From the IMG/VR virus record IMGVR_UViG_2724679140_000014: a stretch of 13,036 nt of DNA. The stretch is one strand, 5' to 3'. Under the pieces are notes generated by a model. The model saw nothing but the letters and a program-made list of their open reading frames with translations, did no database searches and was not told the DNA's origin. The translations under genes and the position numbers were made by a program. Positions 1 to 8,154 of this stretch are shown here, in pieces (position 1 is the first letter of the stretch; each line of letters begins with the position of its first letter). This stretch comes from a virus. Taxonomy: Duplodnaviria > Heunggongvirae > Uroviricota > Caudoviricetes.

Positions 1-1242
1 ATGGCACGAAAAACCACCCCACTAACCATTACGGAGATCAAAAACGCACGACCAGGGGAAAAGGAATACACCCTGCAGGATGGCGGAGGATTATTTCTTC
101 TGGTGAAGCCCTCCGGATCAAAAATATGGCGTTTTACGTACTACCGCCCGGCAGATAAAAAACGGACTATTATCAGCCTTGGATCGCTAAATGATGTTTC
201 CCTGTCTGATGCCAGAGAGCGACGGAATGAATACAGGTCACTCATAGCAAAGGGAATTGACCCACAGGACCATGAACGCCGGAAACGTGAAGCAGAGAGC
301 CGGAAAAAGGGCAACACGTTCGAAAAAGTTGCCTCGGACTGGTACGAGATGAAAAAAGGCCAGAATCTGGCTTACAACACGATTAAGGATATCTGGCGAT
401 CCCTGGAAAAATACGTATTCCCGTACATCGGAAACACGCCAATAGATACCCTCACCGCTCGCCGCTTTGTTGAGATACTCACCCCCATTAAAGCACGCGG
501 CAACCTGGAAACTCTGAAACGCGTTTTGCAGCGCATCAATGAAGTGATGGATTTTGCCGCCAACAGTGGGCTGATTGACATCAACACCGCCGCGAACGTC
601 CGCAAGGCATTCCCCTCACCCACCAAAAAGCACATGCCAACCATCCGACCGGAACAGCTACCGCAGCTAATGCACGATTTATCGGTCGCCAGCATAGAAC
701 GGCAAACCAGATTGCTGATTGAGTGGCAACTGCTGACCGTAGCACGCCCAGCCGAAGCAGCCGCCGCACGCTGGGAAGAAATAGATCTCGATGCCGAAAC
801 CTGGACGATTCCAGCCGGACGCATGAAGATGCGCCGTGACCATGTGATCCCACTTTGCGGTCAGGCTATGGCTGTACTGGAAACCATGAAGCCAATCAGC
901 GCACACAGGGAACACGTTTTTCCCAGCCTTAAAAATCCGATGCTGCCAATGAGCAGCCAGACCGCTAACGCTGCATTACGCCGGATGGGTTACGCTGGTG
1001 TGCTGGTGTCTCACGGATTACGCGCCATATTCAGCACAGCAGCGAACGAGGAAGGATTCGAGCCGGACGTAATCGAGGCCGCACTCGCACACGTGGACAC
1101 GAACGAGGTAAGGCGGGCATATAACAGAAGTAACTACCTGGAAAAGCGCGTGGTGCTTATGCGCTGGTGGGGGGAATTTGTAGAGGCCGCAGCTACCGGA
1201 GTGACCATAGCCAGTGGTAAAAGGGGTATCCGTGCCGTGTAA
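1..1242 (+). CDS. int: Tyrosine recombinase/integrase, P4/CP4-57 (IntA-like) family, 413 aa, apparently full length
   Basis: 413-aa ORF starting at base 1. The N-terminus (MARKTTPLT..EIKNA..GGGLFLLVKPSGSKIWRFTYYRP) and C-terminal catalytic region (HGLRAIFST..VIEAALAH..RAYNRSNYLEKR) match the P4-type integrase pattern as I recall it. The length equals E. coli IntA, and an alpA gene follows as in CP4-57-like islands. Confidence 0.9.
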   Translation: MARKTTPLTITEIKNARPGEKEYTLQDGGGLFLLVKPSGSKIWRFTYYRPADKKRTIISLGSLNDVSLSDARERRNEYRSLIAKGIDPQDHERRKREAESRKKGNTFEKVASDWYEMKKGQNLAYNTIKDIWRSLEKYVFPYIGNTPIDTLTARRFVEILTPIKARGNLETLKRVLQRINEVMDFAANSGLIDINTAANVRKAFPSPTKKHMPTIRPEQLPQLMHDLSVASIERQTRLLIEWQLLTVARPAEAAAARWEEIDLDAETWTIPAGRMKMRRDHVIPLCGQAMAVLETMKPISAHREHVFPSLKNPMLPMSSQTANAALRRMGYAGVLVSHGLRAIFSTAANEEGFEPDVIEAALAHVDTNEVRRAYNRSNYLEKRVVLMRWWGEFVEAAATGVTIASGKRGIRAV

Positions 1243-1266
1243 CTGTACAAAAAACCAGTAAAAGCG

Positions 1267-1295
1267 ATGCAAACCATGCTAAACCATCGTATAAT
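1267..1295 (+). promoter_or_regulatory. Candidate sigma70 promoter (perfect -10 TATAAT at 1290-1295, weak -35 about 17 bp upstream)
   Basis: TATAAT hexamer read directly in the int/orf80 intergenic region; the -35 match is poor (ATGCAA). Confidence 0.25.
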
Positions 1296-1358
1296 CGCCA
1301 CAACCCACCCAATACAGAGAGGAGTCACCCAAATCATGAAATTCAAGGAGCTATCCAG

Positions 1359-1601
1359 GTGTTTTTCAATGAAAAGGTATCCCCTGCTTGCGGCGAAGGG
1401 CTGCAACTGGCGTTAATGGCAAATCGTGAATTCTGGTCAACATACGATCCGGAAGACAAATCAACAGCCCCCACAAAACACGAGGTAGTCAGTTTTTTAC
1501 GCTCGCGTGGCGCATCGAAAAATCTGGCTGAAAGCATCGACAAGGTGCTGAGGCCCACCAGCCTTAAATGTGGTGGGCGACCTAAGAAGTGGAAACGGTA
1601 A
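1359..1601 (+). CDS. Hypothetical small protein (80 aa, GTG start)
   Basis: ORF with a Shine-Dalgarno-like AAGGAG 8 nt upstream of the GTG, followed by a strong intrinsic terminator. No recognisable family. Confidence 0.35.
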   Translation: MFFNEKVSPACGEGLQLALMANREFWSTYDPEDKSTAPTKHEVVSFLRSRGASKNLAESIDKVLRPTSLKCGGRPKKWKR

Positions 1602-1606
1602 TCACA

Positions 1607-1636
1607 ATAGCGGCCCCTTGCGGTCGCTATTTTTTT
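1607..1636 (+). terminator. Rho-independent terminator
   Basis: 9-bp stem ATAGCGGCC/GGTCGCTAT (one G-U pair) with a 6-nt loop, followed by a T6 run; sits right after the orf80 stop. Confidence 0.6.
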
Positions 1637-1665
1637 GCAAAAAGAAAGCGTAATCAATGAGATAA

Positions 1666-1705
1666 AAAACAGTGAGTACCGTTTTAAAACGGTGAGTACT
1701 GTTTT
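1666..1705. promoter_or_regulatory. Two tandem 20-bp dyad-symmetric operator-like sites upstream of alpA
   Basis: AAAACAGTGAGTACCGTTTT (1666-1685) and AAAACGGTGAGTACTGTTTT (1686-1705), each with inverted AAAAC/GTTTT flanks around a GTGAGTAC core, 20 bp centre to centre. Confidence 0.4.
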
Positions 1706-1770
1706 TCCCGCCCTGCCCTGTTTTACCGTATTTATCACCGGAATACGCCGGATTAACGAGGTAAAACACG

Positions 1771-1977
1771 ATGGAAGTAATCAGAAAAATTCTTACCCGT
1801 CAGGAAGTAAAAAATATTCTGCGCATCAAGGCAGACAGTTCGCTACAGGACATGATCAACGCCGGAAAATTCCCGAAAGGCTTCAAAATCGGTCTGCGCC
1901 GTGTTGGCTGGTATGAAGATGAAGTGCTGGCCTGGCTGAAAGAGCGCGAGGAAGAAGCGCGCGGAACGGCTGCGTAA
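1771..1977 (+). CDS. alpA: AlpA-family transcriptional regulator (Phage_AlpA, excisionase-like HTH), 68 aa
   Basis: Small protein with the AlpA-like pattern (..FPKGFKIGLRRVGWYEDEVLAWLKERE..) directly downstream of a P4-family integrase; GAGG 9 nt upstream of the ATG. Confidence 0.85.
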   Translation: MEVIRKILTRQEVKNILRIKADSSLQDMINAGKFPKGFKIGLRRVGWYEDEVLAWLKEREEEARGTAA

Positions 1978-2259
1978 TGGTGTGAGGCGTAACGCGATGA
2001 ACATAACAAAAAGCGCCCCGTTGCCGGAGCGCCCTTGCGAACAATTAACCTGCTGCGAAAAAAATGGATCAGTGCAGGGGAATTATATCAACCGTGTGGC
2101 GAAGCGCCACAATTGCCGGATAACAGGCAAAACAAAGGCCACCCGCTACGGTGGCCCCTCGACACAAGCTACACGTTATCCCCAACGCATGAGCATAGCC
2201 AACAATGCCACATTTGCGGCTGGTGGGCAATGTGATCAGTGTGCTGGCTTGCTGGTGGG

Positions 2260-2457
2260 CTATTCCTGCTCTTTAGTATCGCCATGCTGCGATGTTTTCC
2301 AGGCATGCGATCCCATTTTTGTGCGCCTGTACTCTTTAAGGAATTTCTCAAGAGCAAACGAACAAGGTGCGAATCTTTCCTGTTCTTGTTCGCTTACCGC
2401 ATTTTTGCGTTGTTTTTTCCTGGATGAGGATAATTTCTTTAATGATTTGTCAGTCAT
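2260..2457 (-). CDS. Possible small basic protein (65 aa), weakly supported
   Basis: ORF just downstream of the 2515-2694 gene on the same strand. It ends in ..KEQE like that gene, and the 3' end repeats the DNA motif TCCTGCTCTTT (2264-2274 and 2518-2528). Weak RBS. Confidence 0.2.
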   Translation of the reverse strand: MTDKSLKKLSSSRKKQRKNAVSEQEQERFAPCSFALEKFLKEYRRTKMGSHAWKTSQHGDTKEQE

Positions 2458-2514
2458 CGTATATACCTGTAACCCTGTGCGCCACAGTTCATCACTCCAC
2501 GGCGCTAGTGATGG

Positions 2515-2694
2515 TTACTCCTGCTCTTTGGCCTTGCGACGCTGGCGGCGTTTGATCTCGCCGCGCATGGCTGCACTTATAAACTGCCCTGTACTTTCGC
2601 CTTCTTCTTTCACGTTTTCCATGCCTTCAATAATTTCATGGGCAATACGTGCAGTTACAGATTGTGATTTTGCATTCTTTGGACCTGTTGCCAT
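2515..2694 (-). CDS. Hypothetical small basic protein (59 aa, MATGPKNAKSQ..RRQRRKAKEQE)
   Basis: Internal ATG of the 2515-2733 ORF preceded by a strong RBS (AAGGAG, 6-nt spacer); a promoter-like -35/-10 (TTCAAA/TATATT on the minus strand) and a GTGTAAGACA operator-like site lie immediately upstream. Confidence 0.45.
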   Translation of the reverse strand: MATGPKNAKSQSVTARIAHEIIEGMENVKEEGESTGQFISAAMRGEIKRRQRRKAKEQE

Positions 2695-2715
2695 GTCTAA
2701 CTCCTTATGTTGTTG

Positions 2716-2796
2716 GTGTAAGACAATATACACGAAAAAAAATTATTTTGAAGGCTTGACGTGTAAGACACTTGTATTTTACATTGTGTCTTACAC
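2716..2796. promoter_or_regulatory. Divergent promoter/operator region with three copies of a 10-bp GTGTAAGACA motif
   Basis: GTGTAAGACA at 2716-2725 and 2761-2770 (direct) and TGTCTTACAC at 2787-2796 (inverted); TTGACG -35-like at 2756-2761 on the + strand; minus-strand -35/-10 candidates at 2749-2754 and 2726-2731. Confidence 0.5.
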
Positions 2797-2893
2797 CTTG
2801 TTAATGCAAGGCACAGAAACGACGAAACCCCGCACTGTAGGAGCAGTAACGGGGCTTCTAACCACCAACGATAGCAGAAGTATCGAGGTAGCT

Positions 2894-3433
2894 ATGAGAA
2901 ATCATACCACACACCCGCAAGGGCGGGACTCGCACAACCTGAATAAAGCGGGTATGAAAAACCTGTTGATCGCCACTGCCAGCCAGGGCTATGATTTACC
3001 CGCACCAGCAAAATCTGGTGCCGGGATTGGCGTCCTGGTATTTAACGAAGCGCACAACACGCGCCCTGCGTGTTTTTTTGTGCCGGATAGTCACACCTTA
3101 TCAATGGTGGGCTGTATGGGGGCGGAGCAATCCGCGCCGGGTTCTTCGTTAACCGGTTACGCCAACCCTGTACAGTCCACCGCCAGCGAAATTGGCGTTT
3201 CCTGCGGTGGGTTTATTAAACCTAACGAAGAGGCTGCCAACATGGCTACTACCCCTACCCTTGTACATTCTCAAACTGCCTTTATCTGGCGCTTTATCAT
3301 CTTTGGCGCGTCAGAGTCCCAAATCATCCACGTCACCGCCTGGACGGAACGCGAAGCGCGTAACCATTGCCCGTCAGGTTGTGTCGCTGTATTCGCCGCC
3401 CGTATTCGCCAGGGGGTGCACCATGTGCAATAA
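2894..3433 (+). CDS. Possible CDS (179 aa) of unknown function; the coding part of a long stop-free frame
   Basis: 3' portion of the 483-aa ORF. GAGG 5 nt upstream of the ATG at 2894 and a hairpin (2822-2855) in the putative leader. Ala/Gly/Ser/Thr-rich composition is atypical, so this may be non-coding. Confidence 0.25.
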   Translation: MRNHTTHPQGRDSHNLNKAGMKNLLIATASQGYDLPAPAKSGAGIGVLVFNEAHNTRPACFFVPDSHTLSMVGCMGAEQSAPGSSLTGYANPVQSTASEIGVSCGGFIKPNEEAANMATTPTLVHSQTAFIWRFIIFGASESQIIHVTAWTEREARNHCPSGCVAVFAARIRQGVHHVQ

Positions 3434-3662
3434 CACCCGTCCGGACGCAGCCGCCGAAGCTATAAAAACACTGATTGATGCGCTGATTGATATTTCTGTT
3501 ATCGCAGACAAGGCGCATAAGTACGCCACCAGCGAAACAGAATATGCCGGGGCTTTCGTTCCTCACTCACTGGCTGTTATGCAACTTAGTGCTGATATGG
3601 CGCTGAATGAGGCTAAAGCAATCCTGATTGCTGATTGTGAAAATGGGGGGGGTTATGCGTGA
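3423..3662 (+). CDS. Hypothetical small acidic protein (79 aa)
   Basis: Internal ATG of the 3192-3662 ORF preceded by AGGGGG; protein-like helical sequence (AEAIKTLIDALIDISVIADKAHKYA..); stop overlaps the next start. Confidence 0.4.
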   Translation: MCNNTRPDAAAEAIKTLIDALIDISVIADKAHKYATSETEYAGAFVPHSLAVMQLSADMALNEAKAILIADCENGGGYA

Positions 3663-3888
3663 TGATCGTTTTAATGCCCTGAAACAGGAATTTGATGGCG
3701 TATCGGATGATGCGGGTGATGCGTTGCTGGTTGTTAATGACCTGATAAAGGCCGCATGTTTTTTAATTGGAACCACTGAGCATTCAGGAACAGGCAGCGA
3801 TATTCTCGTTATTGCGTCGGACTATGCTGAATATGTGGCAGAGGCACGTTACAGAAGAAAATTCCCGGAAGATGTAAGCCATGTGTGA
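3655..3888 (+). CDS. Hypothetical small acidic protein (77 aa)
   Basis: ATG at 3655 overlapping the upstream stop (translational coupling), preceded by a G-rich RBS. Confidence 0.4.
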   Translation: MRDDRFNALKQEFDGVSDDAGDALLVVNDLIKAACFLIGTTEHSGTGSDILVIASDYAEYVAEARYRRKFPEDVSHV

Positions 3889-4114
3889 TATTTACAATGA
3901 CACAGTAGACCGTGCATACCGTGCTCTTGCTTACAGTGAAAACATGCTTGAAATATTGCGCTTATGGCTTGAAACGCTTGGCGATAATGAAAGAGATAAA
4001 CGCAACAGCAATATTGCGACGGCGTTAATAACGCTTCTTGAGCCGGTAATAATGGAACTACAAGAAATAGACCTTTTGCACGACAGATATAAAGAACAAC
4101 ACACCGGGAAATAA
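3881..4114 (+). CDS. Hypothetical small protein (77 aa)
   Basis: ATG overlaps the upstream stop (ATGTGTGA); part of the same tightly packed operon. Confidence 0.45.
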   Translation: MCDIYNDTVDRAYRALAYSENMLEILRLWLETLGDNERDKRNSNIATALITLLEPVIMELQEIDLLHDRYKEQHTGK

Positions 4115-4119
4115 AAACC

Positions 4120-4434
4120 ATGAAACAGAAAATTTCTGGCTTTACTGCCAGCGGCCCCGCTCGGCCTGAAATCCGCCCCGGCGATATTTTCAAAGATAAA
4201 TATGGTGGACGAATAACGATAAAAACCGTTGACGATTTTCGCGTGACTTATATTCGCGAAGGTTATGCGCATCCCTGCGTGTCGTCACATATGCGTTTTG
4301 AGAGTGAATTCACCCTGGTAAGCAAAGCACCACCAGCGAACTTAAGCGACATCGACAGAATCATGCGCGTTACAGGTATGGAACGCATTAAGGCAGTACG
4401 TGAAATTATTCGTGAACGGGGAAAAGCAAAATGA
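4120..4434 (+). CDS. Hypothetical protein (104 aa) immediately upstream of, and overlapping, the replication gene
   Basis: ORF whose stop overlaps the start of the 710-aa gene (ATGA at 4431-4434). Confidence 0.5.
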   Translation: MKQKISGFTASGPARPEIRPGDIFKDKYGGRITIKTVDDFRVTYIREGYAHPCVSSHMRFESEFTLVSKAPPANLSDIDRIMRVTGMERIKAVREIIRERGKAK

Positions 4435-6563
4435 AACTGGCACCGAACGTAAAACTGTTACCGAAAGATAAAGGCGAGGATGCAGTGATTTTTGCGGGGG
4501 ATGACGCATACAGCCACGCAGAGCATTACATGCAGGGCGGAGAAGCCAGAAAGCGCGGCGACAAAATACCACCTGTTTATCTCGGACGGCGTGACCTGGG
4601 TAATCTGGAAAACCTGCGTATTGTGGATGAGGGTCGGTCACGCGCCATCGTCAGACGTGCCGGAAAACTGGATGACAAACTGGCGCTACAGATTGAAACC
4701 CTGCTGGCAGTGGCTGGTGTTAAGGAAGCCTGTTTTTGTGACGAGAACGGCGATTTACTGGAGGACTGGACACCACAGCTTGCCCGACTGAAAGACGAAT
4801 ACGAGCGCGGGGAAAGTCTGGTGTTGCCCTTAAAGAAAAAAATCACAGAAAACCAGGGCGATGATGAATTAAAGCCCCGCGTTGAAAGCCGCGCCGATGG
4901 TGTTTTCTGGGTAACGCCAAAAGTTGACAAGCAGTCAGGCGAAATTATCCGGCCTGAGACGTGGTTATGTTCCCCGCTTGAACTACTGGGAACGGGGACA
5001 ATCGGCAAAGAGCATTACCGCGTGATGCGCTGGAAGAAACCCGCAAACCATGAAGTCATCACAATGGCGGTTCCGTGCGGGGGCATTGGCGACCGTGACG
5101 GCTGGCGGTTGCTGAAAGACCACGGCCTGAACGTGACAACCAACGGCAAATACAGGGCTATCCTGGCTGACTGGATGCAGTTAAGCGGAAACCATGAGGA
5201 ATGGCAGTTAAGCACAACAACGGGCTGGCATTTTGGCGCGTACATCATGCCGGACGGTTCGGTCATTGGTGATTGCGAAAAGCCAGTCCTGTTTACCGGA
5301 AAAACGGCTGCTGTTAATGGTTATTCCGTGGCAGGAACGGCGGAGGGCTGGCGCGATACCGTTGCGCGGCTGGCTGGTGGTAATCCGTCCATGATGCTGG
5401 GTGTGGCGGTATCGTTATCTGCACCATTAATCGGGCTGGTGGGCGCTGACGGCTTCGGGGTACATCTTTTCGAACAGTCATCGGCAGGTAAGACCACAAC
5501 GCAGAACATCGCATCAAGTTTATGGGGAGAGCCGGACGCGCAGCGGCTGACCTGGTACGGCACAGCGTTAGGTATCGCCAACGAAGCAGAGGCACACAAT
5601 GACGGGCTTTTACCCCTGGATGAAATAGGCCAGGCCGGAAACGCGCGGGAGGTGTCCACGTCAGCCTATACGCTGTTTAACGGTTCCGGGAAATTACAGG
5701 GGGCGAAGGACGGCGGCAACAGGGAGATCAAACACTGGCGCACGGTGGCAATCAGCACCGGAGAAATGGACGTTGAGACATTCCTCAAAACGGAGGGGAT
5801 AAAAGTCAAGGCGGGGCAGCTTGTCCGCCTGCTTAACGTGCCAATGGAAAAAGCCACGCAGTTTCACGAATACAGCACCGGAAAGGCGCACGCAGACGCG
5901 TTAAAAGATGCCTGGACAGAAAATCACGGGGCGGCGGGGCGTGAGTGGGTTAAATGGCTGGCAGACCACCAGCAGGAGACAAAGGACACGGTAAGGGCAT
6001 GCCGTGAACGGTGGCGCAACCTGATACCGGAGAGCTACGGCGAGCAGGTACACCGCGTGGGTGAGCGTTTCGCCATACTGGAGGCCGCGCTTGTGCTTTC
6101 CGGTCATGTGACTGGCTGGGATGAGCAGGAATGCCGTGATGCCATTCAGCATAATTTTAATGCCTGGGTGAAGGAATTCGGTACGGGCAACAGGGAACAC
6201 AGGCAGATTATTGAACAGGCTGAGGCGTTTCTTGCGGCCTATGGCCTGAGCAGGTTCGCCCCTGTCAATTATGACCCTGCCAGCCTGCCGATTTCAGAAC
6301 TGTACGGCTACAGGGAAAGCGACGGGCGTTATGACGAGCCTGTTTTGTTTTACGTGCTGCCGGAGCCGTTTAGCTCACATGTGGCGAAGGGATTTAACAA
6401 GGATGCCGTAGCAAAGACCCTTCATGAAGCCGGAATGCTGAGAAAACCAGCCAGCGGGCGGGGATGGCAAATCAGGACACCACGACTAAAACACCTGAAA
6501 GGGGCGCGGCTAAGAGTGTATGGCCTTTTGCTGACACAGGACCACGATGCTGAAAATGATTAA
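4431..6563 (+). CDS. Satellite replication initiator: primase/helicase-like protein with a P-loop NTPase domain (DUF927/D5-like), 710 aa
   Basis: Large ORF with a Walker-A-like motif (FEQSSAGKTT), placed directly upstream of an iteron array as in PICI pri-rep modules. Family assignment is from recalled domain architecture, not a search. Confidence 0.75.
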   Translation: MKLAPNVKLLPKDKGEDAVIFAGDDAYSHAEHYMQGGEARKRGDKIPPVYLGRRDLGNLENLRIVDEGRSRAIVRRAGKLDDKLALQIETLLAVAGVKEACFCDENGDLLEDWTPQLARLKDEYERGESLVLPLKKKITENQGDDELKPRVESRADGVFWVTPKVDKQSGEIIRPETWLCSPLELLGTGTIGKEHYRVMRWKKPANHEVITMAVPCGGIGDRDGWRLLKDHGLNVTTNGKYRAILADWMQLSGNHEEWQLSTTTGWHFGAYIMPDGSVIGDCEKPVLFTGKTAAVNGYSVAGTAEGWRDTVARLAGGNPSMMLGVAVSLSAPLIGLVGADGFGVHLFEQSSAGKTTTQNIASSLWGEPDAQRLTWYGTALGIANEAEAHNDGLLPLDEIGQAGNAREVSTSAYTLFNGSGKLQGAKDGGNREIKHWRTVAISTGEMDVETFLKTEGIKVKAGQLVRLLNVPMEKATQFHEYSTGKAHADALKDAWTENHGAAGREWVKWLADHQQETKDTVRACRERWRNLIPESYGEQVHRVGERFAILEAALVLSGHVTGWDEQECRDAIQHNFNAWVKEFGTGNREHRQIIEQAEAFLAAYGLSRFAPVNYDPASLPISELYGYRESDGRYDEPVLFYVLPEPFSSHVAKGFNKDAVAKTLHEAGMLRKPASGRGWQIRTPRLKHLKGARLRVYGLLLTQDHDAEND

Positions 6564-7617: not shown

Positions 7618-8154
7618 ATGACAACGCTGACCATTAACCGAAAACCGAAAGGCATTTACGGCACGCAGTCAGAAACGACGCAGGCGGCACAGCAGCAGGA
7701 TAAAACCACATCGGCGCATAAAGTGATACCCGGCAATCAGAACGCACAGCAGAGCCGCAAAGGGCAGCCCACAGGGGTGACACCGTGGCGGCATATGACC
7801 AAACGCCAGCGCAAAAACCGCAGACGCGTTAACCGCCTTATTGAGCTGTGGCCTGATTTATTCAGCCGGGAAACACCGAAGCCGCTTAAGGTGGGGATAT
7901 TCGACGACCTGATGCAGGATCTCGCCGTCAGGGGGCTGGCATTCGGGCCAGGGGCATTACGTGCGACGCTGGCATCTTATGCGCAGTCTCCGCGCTATTA
8001 CCGCGCCTTAATGGCTGGTGGTGCACGTTACGACCTGAAAGGCCAGCCATGTGGGGAAGTGACACCACAGGAACAGCAGGAGGCAGAAACGCGGCTGGCA
8101 GCACTGAATGAAAAGCGCAAACGTCAGGCGACAAAGGAGAGGACAGGCGCATGA
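7618..8154 (+). CDS. ProQ/FinO-domain RNA-binding protein (RNA chaperone-like), 178 aa
   Basis: Core region LIELWPDLF..PKPLKVGIFDDL....ALRATLASYAQSPRYYRAL..GGARYDLKGQPCGEVT matches the ProQ/FinO fold signature as in E. coli ProQ (..[43 protein letters not shown]..). Confidence 0.75.
   Translation: MTTLTINRKPKGIYGTQSETTQAAQQQDKTTSAHKVIPGNQNAQQSRKGQPTGVTPWRHMTKRQRKNRRRVNRLIELWPDLFSRETPKPLKVGIFDDLMQDLAVRGLAFGPGALRATLASYAQSPRYYRALMAGGARYDLKGQPCGEVTPQEQQEAETRLAALNEKRKRQATKERTGA

Follow-up and report, generated by a model that had tools for sequence, protein, structure and literature searches.

The DNA analysed here, IMG/VR virus record IMGVR_UViG_2724679140_000014 (Caudoviricetes), is a stretch of 13,036 nucleotides (nt), which we refer to as the window. 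It begins with a tyrosine integrase gene (int, 1-1242) and carries on the plus strand the regulator gene alpA (1771-1977; AlpA/HTH_17, Pfam PF05930, 33.3 bits). Further 3', a chain of short overlapping open reading frames (ORFs) leads to a DUF4222 gene and a DUF927 primase gene (4431-6563). Judged by this int-alpA-DUF927 primase layout, the window appears to be a satellite of the Gram-negative phage-inducible chromosomal island (PICI) type. The interval between alpA and the replication genes (1982-3433) is the conserved regulatory and immunity zone of the satellite, and its parts suggest that it is probably an immunity zone with three layers: a protein repressor, YlcI, a C4-type antisense RNA and a long open frame on the plus strand. 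Relatives were collected as 80 IMG/VR loci, found by a search with the Icd protein encoded at the end of the zone, and 5 Escherichia coli loci, giving 47 sequence clusters that hold both alpA and icd. A genome-contig search with YlcI gave only 5 loci, and it was the IMG/VR search with Icd that gave the useful set.

An earlier note, made from the letters of this DNA alone, had pointed to a 59-amino-acid (aa) basic protein with a strong ribosome-binding site (RBS) on the minus strand of the zone. This gene is real. It spans 2515-2694, with its ATG on the complement of 2692-2694 and AAGGAG 7 nt before it, and its product belongs to the YlcI/YnfO family (NF041551, 66.9 bits against a curated cut-off of 30), with 151 homologues across Enterobacterales. 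No function is assigned to YlcI/YnfO in the literature searched, where the family is listed only as a 'prophage-associated protein' (PMC13612085). The AlphaFold monomer model (38 homologues; pLDDT, the predicted local distance difference test score, 87.6) has an extended N-terminus and two helices joined by an invariant G-E-S-T turn, matching the strand-helix-helix with a G-x-S/T turn of ribbon-helix-helix (RHH) proteins. In the model, helix B extends to the end of the protein and leaves no C-terminal extension for toxin binding. The fold of YlcI is thus predicted to be RHH. The C-termini of YlcI homologues alternate between ...RRQRRKAKEQE and ...ARRQAEGSGENPLV. A candidate relation to the P22 repressor Arc was set aside: hhalign aligned the right elements, but at 2.9% probability, a hint only.

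The DNA upstream of ylcI contains three exact copies of GTGTAAGACA, at 2716-2725 (+), 2761-2770 (+) and 2787-2796 (-), which lengthen to inverted repeats of 11 nt. In the window as a whole, chance would supply about 0.025 exact copies of a 10-mer, and three copies in 81 nt are far beyond chance; a scan for GTGTAAGACA with up to 2 mismatches was not enriched (9 found against 8.6 expected). The first predicted operator, O1 (2716-2725), adjoins the conserved -10 element (TATATT, minus strand) and the start site of the ylcI promoter. The other two bracket a rightward promoter on the plus strand (2756-2785; TTGACG, 18 nt, TACATT), whose -35 CTTGA(C/A) is kept in all operator types. Predicted operator O2 (2761-2770, +) abuts this -35, and predicted O3 (2787-2796, -), which faces O2 in inverted orientation with a 14-nt gap between the 11-nt arms, lies over the start site. 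The layout is fixed in relatives, with O1 ~22 nt from the ylcI ATG, O2 directly after the -35 CTTGA(C/A) and O3 23-35 nt beyond.

Operator sequence tracks the N-terminal strand of YlcI (KSQxxxxR) across at least 11 types, in a graded manner such that similar strands go with similar operators. The strand SVTARI is paired with GTGTAAGACA, ALKARV with GTGGGCCACA, KLQARA with CTGGAATCCA, MTTVRI with GTGTATTTCA, LTTVRV with GTGTGTTTCA, MTTIRV with GTGTATATCA and QLNARF with GTGCGATTCA, and further such pairs exist. Two loci (L017 and L045) in which YlcI has the window's strand and a different C-terminal half keep window-like operators. Because strand and operator co-vary in the relatives, YlcI is very likely a repressor specific for its operators that acts on its own promoter and on the rightward one. 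The earlier impression of a three-site divergent promoter region reminiscent of a repressor switch is therefore borne out, both by the three exact sites and by the way in which the operators track the YlcI strand.

A strong minus-strand promoter-like site (2776-2804; TTAACA, 17 nt, TAAAAT; 10/12 matches) has its -10 over that of the rightward promoter, between O2 and O3; on the evidence of consensus matches only, RNA polymerase binding at the two sites would be mutually exclusive. In E. coli K-12, ylcI (locus L092, prophage DLP12, 4252-4446) is divergent from nohD across the cos region. No clear three-operator layout was found at this K-12 locus, where a TTGACGTGG motif resembles the -35/O2 junction, and in lambdoid prophages the YlcI family may serve another role, or a decayed one.

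Downstream of the rightward promoter, a leader (2825-2893) is conserved even in relatives without the C4 module. It comprises a conserved plus-strand hairpin (2825-2857) with compensatory changes (7 of the 13 predicted hairpin pairs change on both sides), an invariant C-rich TCTAACCACCAACGATA that is perhaps rut-like, and a second plus-strand hairpin (2869-2885), the 3' arm of which abuts the GAGG (2885-2888) before an ATG at 2894. The leader probably adds further control and could be a processing, antitermination or translational-control element.

The second layer begins at an internal plus-strand promoter (2966-2995; TTGATC, 18 nt, TATGAT), the analogue of PLE in the satellite P4, whose hexamers are invariant in C4-bearing relatives. 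Its predicted start at ~3002 is the 5' end of an IsrK-like RNA (3002-3078, +; Rfam RF01394, 80 bits against a gathering score of 50), the counterpart of the P4 seqA leader. Within this RNA lie targets b1 (3027-3033) and a1 (3042-3050), and an intrinsic terminator (3056-3078) closes it; the family match, its own promoter-like site and the terminator together place it in the IsrK family. It is followed by a C4/P4-CI-like antisense RNA (3100-3187, +), which matches the full-length model of Rfam RF01695 (clan CL00128) at 75.3 bits against a gathering score of 45. The minimum-free-energy fold of the C4-like RNA has a long outer stem and two inner hairpins, with a 12-nt loop (a', 3142-3152) and a single-stranded b' (3159-3165). 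Over 9-10 nt, a' pairs with TTAACGAAG at a1 and with TAACGAAGAG at a downstream plus-strand target, a2 (3223-3232), while b' pairs over 7 nt with TTGGCGT at b1 and at the second downstream target, b2 (3192-3198). The a2 site overlaps GAAGAGG, the Shine-Dalgarno (SD) sequence of icd, 9 nt before the icd ATG at 3242. The Rfam target motif c4-a1b1 was matched at 2989-3041 with 44.5 bits, just under its gathering score of 46.7.

To follow the loops and their targets through the relatives, the RNA segment from 14 related loci was aligned with that of P4. The sets a1/a'/a2 and b1/b'/b2 change together in the 14 relatives and P4, giving at least 7 specificities set among conserved stems, promoter hexamers and icd SD/ATG. 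One b series runs UUGGCGU/ACGCCAA, UUAGCCU/AGGCUAA, UUAGGAC/GUCCUAA, UUACCAC/GUGGUAA and UUCUCAC/GUGAGAA, and one a series, each member with its matching loop, UAACGAAG, ACUGAAG, GUUACAGG, GUCAAAGG and AAUCGAGG. Duplex energies of whole RNA segments were too noisy to read specificity, and the b-site 7-mers are too short for a pairing matrix to be specific alone; the alignment and loop-level pairing were used instead. P1 and P7 carry heteroimmune C4 systems, and the co-variation of the a and b sites is the pattern to be expected of such C4/CI systems. Against the C4-less form, the C4 module is an exact in-frame indel of 111 codons. Many relatives are without the isrK-C4 module; in these (L002, 4192-4398; L009, 2342-2548), MRNHTTHPQGRDSHNLNK continues straight into the Icd core, and the resulting Icd-like protein has 68 aa. 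In loci of the L010 type, part of icd is duplicated upstream of the module, pointing to exchange through recombination inside icd.

The zone ends with a 63-aa Icd/Kil-like gene (3242-3433, +; NF033153, 59.7 bits), which heads the operon of overlapping ORFs running to the DUF4222 gene and the primase and whose frame is under clear purifying selection. The gene is the in-frame end of a 179-codon Ash/Eta-like ORF (2894-3433, +; phrog_29966, E=4.5e-94; GAGG 5 nt upstream of ATG 2894), which starts upstream of the internal promoter and spans both RNA genes. By this nested arrangement, the 179-codon ORF is the counterpart of P4 eta. The Ala/Gly/Ser/Thr-rich stretch that had earlier been read as protein is, from the Rfam matches, the translation of the IsrK-like and C4/CI-like RNA genes. 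Likewise, Pfam Ash (PF10554, 56 bits against a gathering score of 26) covers residues 340-430 of the long frame (nt ~2999-3271), which lie on the RNA genes, and in P4 it covers eta residues 40-164, the isrK-C4-seqC region. Because the Ash matches coincide with the isrK and C4 genes both here and in P4, the name 'Ash family' denotes the eta-frame translation of an RNA immunity region, and membership does not show a functional protein.

The same segment can be read the other way round, with the long plus-strand ORF, or its 179-aa Ash-Icd part, as a sequence-specific regulatory protein of a Bro/Ash network and the RNA matches as secondary. The 179-aa product does match Pfam Ash, phrog_29966 and several 'transcriptional regulator' PHROGs, PGAP names an 'ash family protein' in relatives, and tblastn places the segment inside the antirepressor genes of many phages. 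The protein similarity does not, however, reach beyond residues ~335-475, the stretch of the RNA genes and icd, and the segment varies by the rules of an RNA, with three-way co-variation of loop and targets and compensatory changes in the stems. Its ratio of non-synonymous to synonymous polymorphism (pN/pS, 0.5-0.8) is no better than that of other frames, PGAP itself flags the ORFs as incomplete pseudogenes, and C4-less relatives delete exactly the Ash segment and keep Icd. We therefore regard a regulatory Ash protein as very unlikely. In the relatives, PGAP labels parts of the long frame as pseudogenes ('incomplete, missing C-terminus') of an 'ash family protein' or an 'Icd-like protein', at 3997-4515 in L001, 2495-2752 in L008, and 1748-2263 and 2417-2755 in L010. 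The antisense orf65 homologue of L010 is left uncalled by PGAP, and the annotation of the zone is inconsistent between genomes.

Also on the minus strand is orf65 (2260-2457), which encodes a 65-aa basic helical protein (phrog_21027 full-length, E=1.7e-43) with 37 homologues, all confined to Escherichia. Its AlphaFold2 model, of low confidence (pLDDT 63), has two helices and is too weak for a structure search. This is the second small ORF with a shared C-terminal KEQE and 3' DNA motif that the earlier note had thought possible: ylcI and orf65 both end in KEQE and have the 11-mer TCCTGCTCTTT in common at their 3' ends (2264-2274 and 2519-2529). The direct repeat of TCCTGCTCTTT, which encodes the shared KEQE, may mark a recombination joint for module exchange. 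Two intrinsic terminator-like hairpins on the minus strand would be the proximal (2134-2159) and distal (2009-2036) terminators of the ylcI-orf65 operon.

The ylcI-orf65 pair could instead be a type II toxin-antitoxin system, with an RHH antitoxin and a small toxin, or another defence or cargo module. The earlier note had placed the interval among variable cargo and had named immunity, toxin-antitoxin and anti-phage functions. This reading is highly improbable and was rejected: ylcI and orf65 each occur without the other in many relatives, and orf65 has no toxin-like features, its 65 aa and two helices, predicted at low confidence, being unlike RelE or ParE. Obligate co-occurrence of antitoxin and toxin with a known toxin fold, which defines type II systems, was not seen for ylcI-orf65. 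Neither gene matches Pfam, none of the small ORFs matches PADLOC, and the zone has no matches to defence models. The 59-aa YlcI, as modelled, is without the toxin-binding extension, and 2 of the 3 operators are on the promoter that faces the replication genes rather than on ylcI's own. The interval is a conserved regulatory zone, not a variable cargo site.

The third layer is the plus strand itself, which the earlier note had found open for 1452 nt. With a small correction of coordinates, the stop-free frame spans 497 codons (1940-3433), opening 38 nt inside the 3' end of alpA and ending at the icd stop. Its first GTG is at 1982 (483 codons from there) and its first ATG, at 1997, lies 20 nt after the alpA stop with GAGG (1984-1987) 9 nt upstream. 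Between 1978 and 3241 the long frame has 0 stops, compared to 23 and 21 in the other plus-strand frames and 13-17 in the minus-strand frames. The long frame shares wobble positions with both antisense genes, and synonymous resampling of these two genes left it open in 66% and 47% of trials; because of this, openness over the antisense genes is unremarkable. The non-genic segments differ. Under a first-order Markov model their probabilities of being open are 0.038 (1978-2259), 0.58, 0.0015 (2695-3001) and 0.086 (3002-3241), jointly ~3e-6.

Openness was then followed through the 47 clusters. In 21 of them no stop interrupts the icd frame as far back as the alpA stop, and 3 more come close to this. 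Counting the alpA frame, the plus strand needs at most 3 stop-free stretches to tile the interval in 35/47 clusters (median 3), compared to a median of 10 for the minus strand and for shuffled sequence. Openness persists across four classes of alpA junction, whether or not the C4 module is present, and also where a cassette is duplicated. This last case is locus L015, where the ylcI/orf65-type cassette is duplicated (1230-3689): its alpA-to-icd frame is 819 codons long and the frame has 1 stop, against 49 and 42 in the other two frames. The promoter region was tested in the 200 nt upstream of the ylcI ATG, using 17 operator types that include other genera. This DNA is intergenic, with 36% G+C and a median identity of 42%. 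The frame sharing the ylcI wobble has 1 stop in the 17 types, against 111 and 81 in the other two, and in the first 99 nt, upstream of the rightward start site, the three frames have 0, 50 and 52 stops. Collectively, these comparisons indicate that the stop-free frame is not due to chance and has been preserved in diverged relatives, AT-rich promoter DNA included.

Several observations weigh against the three-layer reading. A Foldseek search with the YlcI model found no match, the RHH call coming from a monomer model, and sequence profiles of YlcI gave RHH-related matches below threshold only. Some relatives lack ylcI and some lack the C4 module, and neither layer is obligatory. In almost all clusters where icd is not open back to alpA, the interval is tiled by two overlapping plus-strand stop-free frames, the single frame being broken in about half of the clusters. 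Part of the excess of stops in the other frames comes from conserved motifs, the TGA of TTGAC being one. Outside icd there is no purifying selection at the amino-acid level (pN/pS ~0.5-1.6 in 1997-2257 and 2693-2893). Finally, ATG 2894 lies 3' of the YlcI-controlled promoter and P4 eta starts after the alpA homologue, which makes the analogy with eta inexact.

These observations define what may be conserved. The stop asymmetry, on the counts above, is far too large for conserved motifs alone. The tiling by overlapping frames suggests a requirement for continuous plus-strand openness, not for one protein. Because substitutions outside icd are not concentrated at the third positions of the long frame, the conserved feature is probably translatability and not protein sequence, and any protein made from the frame is probably not the target of selection. 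The pN/pS of the minus-strand genes did not discriminate against that of the overlapping plus frame, because wobble positions are shared. The earlier view that only the 3' part, if any, is likely coding is upheld in that the 3' end is Icd-like, and fails in that the openness of the 5' part is not accidental, being kept in relatives.

It could still be argued that only the annotated pieces (ylcI, orf65, the RNAs and icd) are functional and that the frame upstream of ~2894 is a by-product of the shadow of the antisense genes, chance and ancestry. The shared wobble positions with the resampling result, and the lack of amino-acid constraint outside icd, both suit this explanation; many close relatives also share ancestry, and module swaps inside icd, of which the partial icd duplication in L010 is an example, would preserve the frame automatically. 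The improbable segments, however, are the non-genic ones, at 0.0015 and 0.038. A by-product also accounts poorly for 17 operator types at 42% median identity with 1 stop against 111 and 81, or for openness across the four alpA junction classes, with or without C4, and through the 819 codons of the L015 duplication. On balance, we consider it unlikely that the frame is a by-product.

For the three-layer zone, the identity of the parts, their complementarity, their co-variation and the conservation of the frame were observed, and from them we infer binding, processing, termination and translation as follows. The divergent ylcI-orf65 operon would encode an RHH repressor, YlcI, that binds the three GTGTAAGACA operators, one on ylcI's own promoter and two bracketing the -35 and the start of the rightward promoter, which points towards the replication operon. 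While the island is quiescent, YlcI would keep the rightward promoter off. The constitutive internal promoter at 2966-2995 would meanwhile produce a short IsrK-like RNA, stopped at its own terminator, and read-through past this terminator would yield the C4/P4-CI-like RNA. The latter would pair with the IsrK leader and with the sites ahead of icd/kil, covering the icd RBS. With icd translation blocked, the transcript would be left untranslated and open to premature termination, and the primase operon would stay silent, as in P1/P7 immI and P4.

Upon induction, the helper would activate alpA transcription, and AlpA would activate its own promoter and the downstream genes. A terminator scan of the window found no plus-strand terminator after alpA, and alpA transcripts would therefore run on, antisense through orf65 and ylcI. 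Untranslated antisense RNA is normally removed by Rho. An open frame with a start codon 5-20 nt after the alpA stop would let ribosomes shield the alpA read-through transcripts from Rho and carry them over the operators and through the RNA cassette, much like eta translation in P4. Translation of the long frame should thus prevent both C4 action and Rho-dependent termination. At the same time, convergent transcription would lower ylcI expression and free the rightward promoter, the transcripts of which would start the 179-codon ORF at ATG 2894. The frame is probably kept open so that translated read-through transcripts can override the block.

More tentatively, and with somewhat less than even confidence, we propose that the 483-497-codon frame is a 'conduit ORF', selected for translatability. 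Ribosomes would re-initiate at 1982 or 1997 after alpA and escort the helper-induced transcript past the operators and the RNA cassette; with YlcI as the missing master repressor of Gram-negative PICIs, the zone would combine a protein repressor, an antisense RNA and translation-dependent anti-termination. The escorted transcript would be shielded from Rho and from C4, and transcriptional interference would also silence ylcI.

C4/CI-type RNA immunity, Icd/Kil, the nesting of kil in eta and the presence of such RNAs in Gram-negative PICIs are already known. As far as the literature searched shows, three predictions are new: YlcI/YnfO as an RHH repressor with mapped, co-varying operators; the free re-assortment of repressor types with RNA-immunity types; and an open frame conserved through an antisense repressor operon and its promoters. 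The paper that defined Gram-negative PICIs left the existence of a repressor open (PMC6092414), and none is named for them in the literature searched. The YlcI/YnfO protein is thus a testable candidate, with at least 11 natural specificity variants, and this is a first functional prediction for an uncharacterised E. coli family (K-12 ylcI and ynfO). Immunity would be modular, an RNA cassette in at least 7 heteroimmune specificities being combined with repressor types, and a frame held open for translation itself would extend the principle of P4 eta. For annotation, 'Ash family protein' calls are translations of RNA genes, and pipelines alternate between the long ORF and the small antisense genes.

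An 80-aa ORF between int and alpA (1359-1631) is hypothetical in relatives and has no family matches; a plus-strand terminator-like hairpin (1606-1631) follows it, just 5' of the alpA promoter region. Located 3' of the primase are SSB, a ProQ/FinO protein, PerC, a DUF1441 protein and a Nu1-like small terminase. The ProQ/FinO-domain protein is encoded at 7618-8154, the DUF1441 protein at 8731-9279 and the full-length Nu1-like small terminase, on the opposite strand, at 9966-10568 (minus). The presence of a ProQ/FinO RNA chaperone in the same island as an antisense-RNA immunity system may be relevant. There are two PerC-family genes, at 8151-8438 (123.5 bits) and 12728-13036 (81.8 bits), the second reaching the end of the window, and the element or a neighbour may be duplicated or in tandem. 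The ends of the window are not att sites, and the PICI core genes (int, alpA and primase) are all present. Related E. coli loci adjoin tRNA-Pro beside yejM with the same gene order, and about 1/3 of complete E. coli genomes have a match to window positions 1700-4500. The control region of the GTGTAAGACA type was found in about 430 of 5426 complete genomes.

Among known systems, the Gram-negative PICIs, EcCICFT073 and its relatives, resemble the window in their int-alpA-...-primase layout, in the tRNA-adjacent integration seen in relatives, and in the PerC, ProQ and TerS-like genes downstream. This layout has been described (PMC6092414, PMC10111431). In EcCICFT073, AlpA activates its own promoter and downstream genes (PMC6092414), and C4 and isrK profile matches were previously noted in several Gram-negative PICIs, in the 'Bro zone' (PMC10111431).

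P22 immI, which combines the RHH repressors Arc and Mnt with the sar antisense RNA and ant, has no detectable sequence homology to the window. The window has one repressor gene rather than two, its operators differ, and its RNA is of the C4 type and not sar. Gifsy-1 isrK-orf45-anrP of Salmonella is closer: like the window, it has an IsrK-family RNA with its own promoter and terminator, and in Gifsy-1 a read-through transcript with a C4-like processed RNA lies under an ORF conserved in nucleotides and not in amino acids (PMC4825925), an arrangement like that predicted for the window. Gifsy-1 IsrK activates orf45/anrP translation in trans (PMC4825925), whereas the gene downstream in the window is icd, followed by the replication operon.

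The window also resembles the immI region (c4-icd-ant) of P1/P7 in its C4 RNA, its a/b targets and an icd whose RBS is under a target. In P1/P7 immI, the C4 RNA is cut from the transcript that it controls, with a1/b1 and a2/b2 targets; the icd RBS is masked, and heteroimmune variants differ in a'/b'. P1/P7 immI controls an antirepressor, whereas the genes downstream in the window are for replication, and no C1-type operator is known in the window, where a predicted RHH repressor stands upstream instead.

The closest parallel is the P4 immunity region (PLL-orf88/vis-eta[PLE-seqA-CI-seqC]-kil-...-alpha primase), in which the order of the parts is the same as in the window. Both have an alpA/vis homologue, a long ORF, an internal constitutive promoter, an isrK/seqA-like leader, a C4/CI RNA and a downstream target over an RBS, and in both a Kil/Icd-like gene ends the long ORF and precedes the replication operon. 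In P4, the isrK and C4 Rfam matches lie inside a 217-codon stop-free frame that runs from the end of orf88/vis to the 65-aa Kil, itself a match to NF033153 at 76.1 bits. BLASTP gave no alignment between the window's Icd and P4 Kil, and the two are related at the level of the family hidden Markov model only; the SD/ATG context of P4 is nearly identical to that of the window. P4 eta contains CI and a constitutive internal promoter, and Kil is a truncated Eta (PMC10111431). Full-length eta, which is coupled to the alpA homologue, prevents termination by being translated (PMC10111431). Unlike P4-like satellites, the window has no sid, delta or psu, its primase is the DUF927 type of PICIs and its a/b specificities differ. 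It also differs from P4 in that ylcI-orf65, the operators and an extra rightward promoter are embedded antisense in the eta-like frame, which is stretched to 497 codons in the window compared to 217 in P4.

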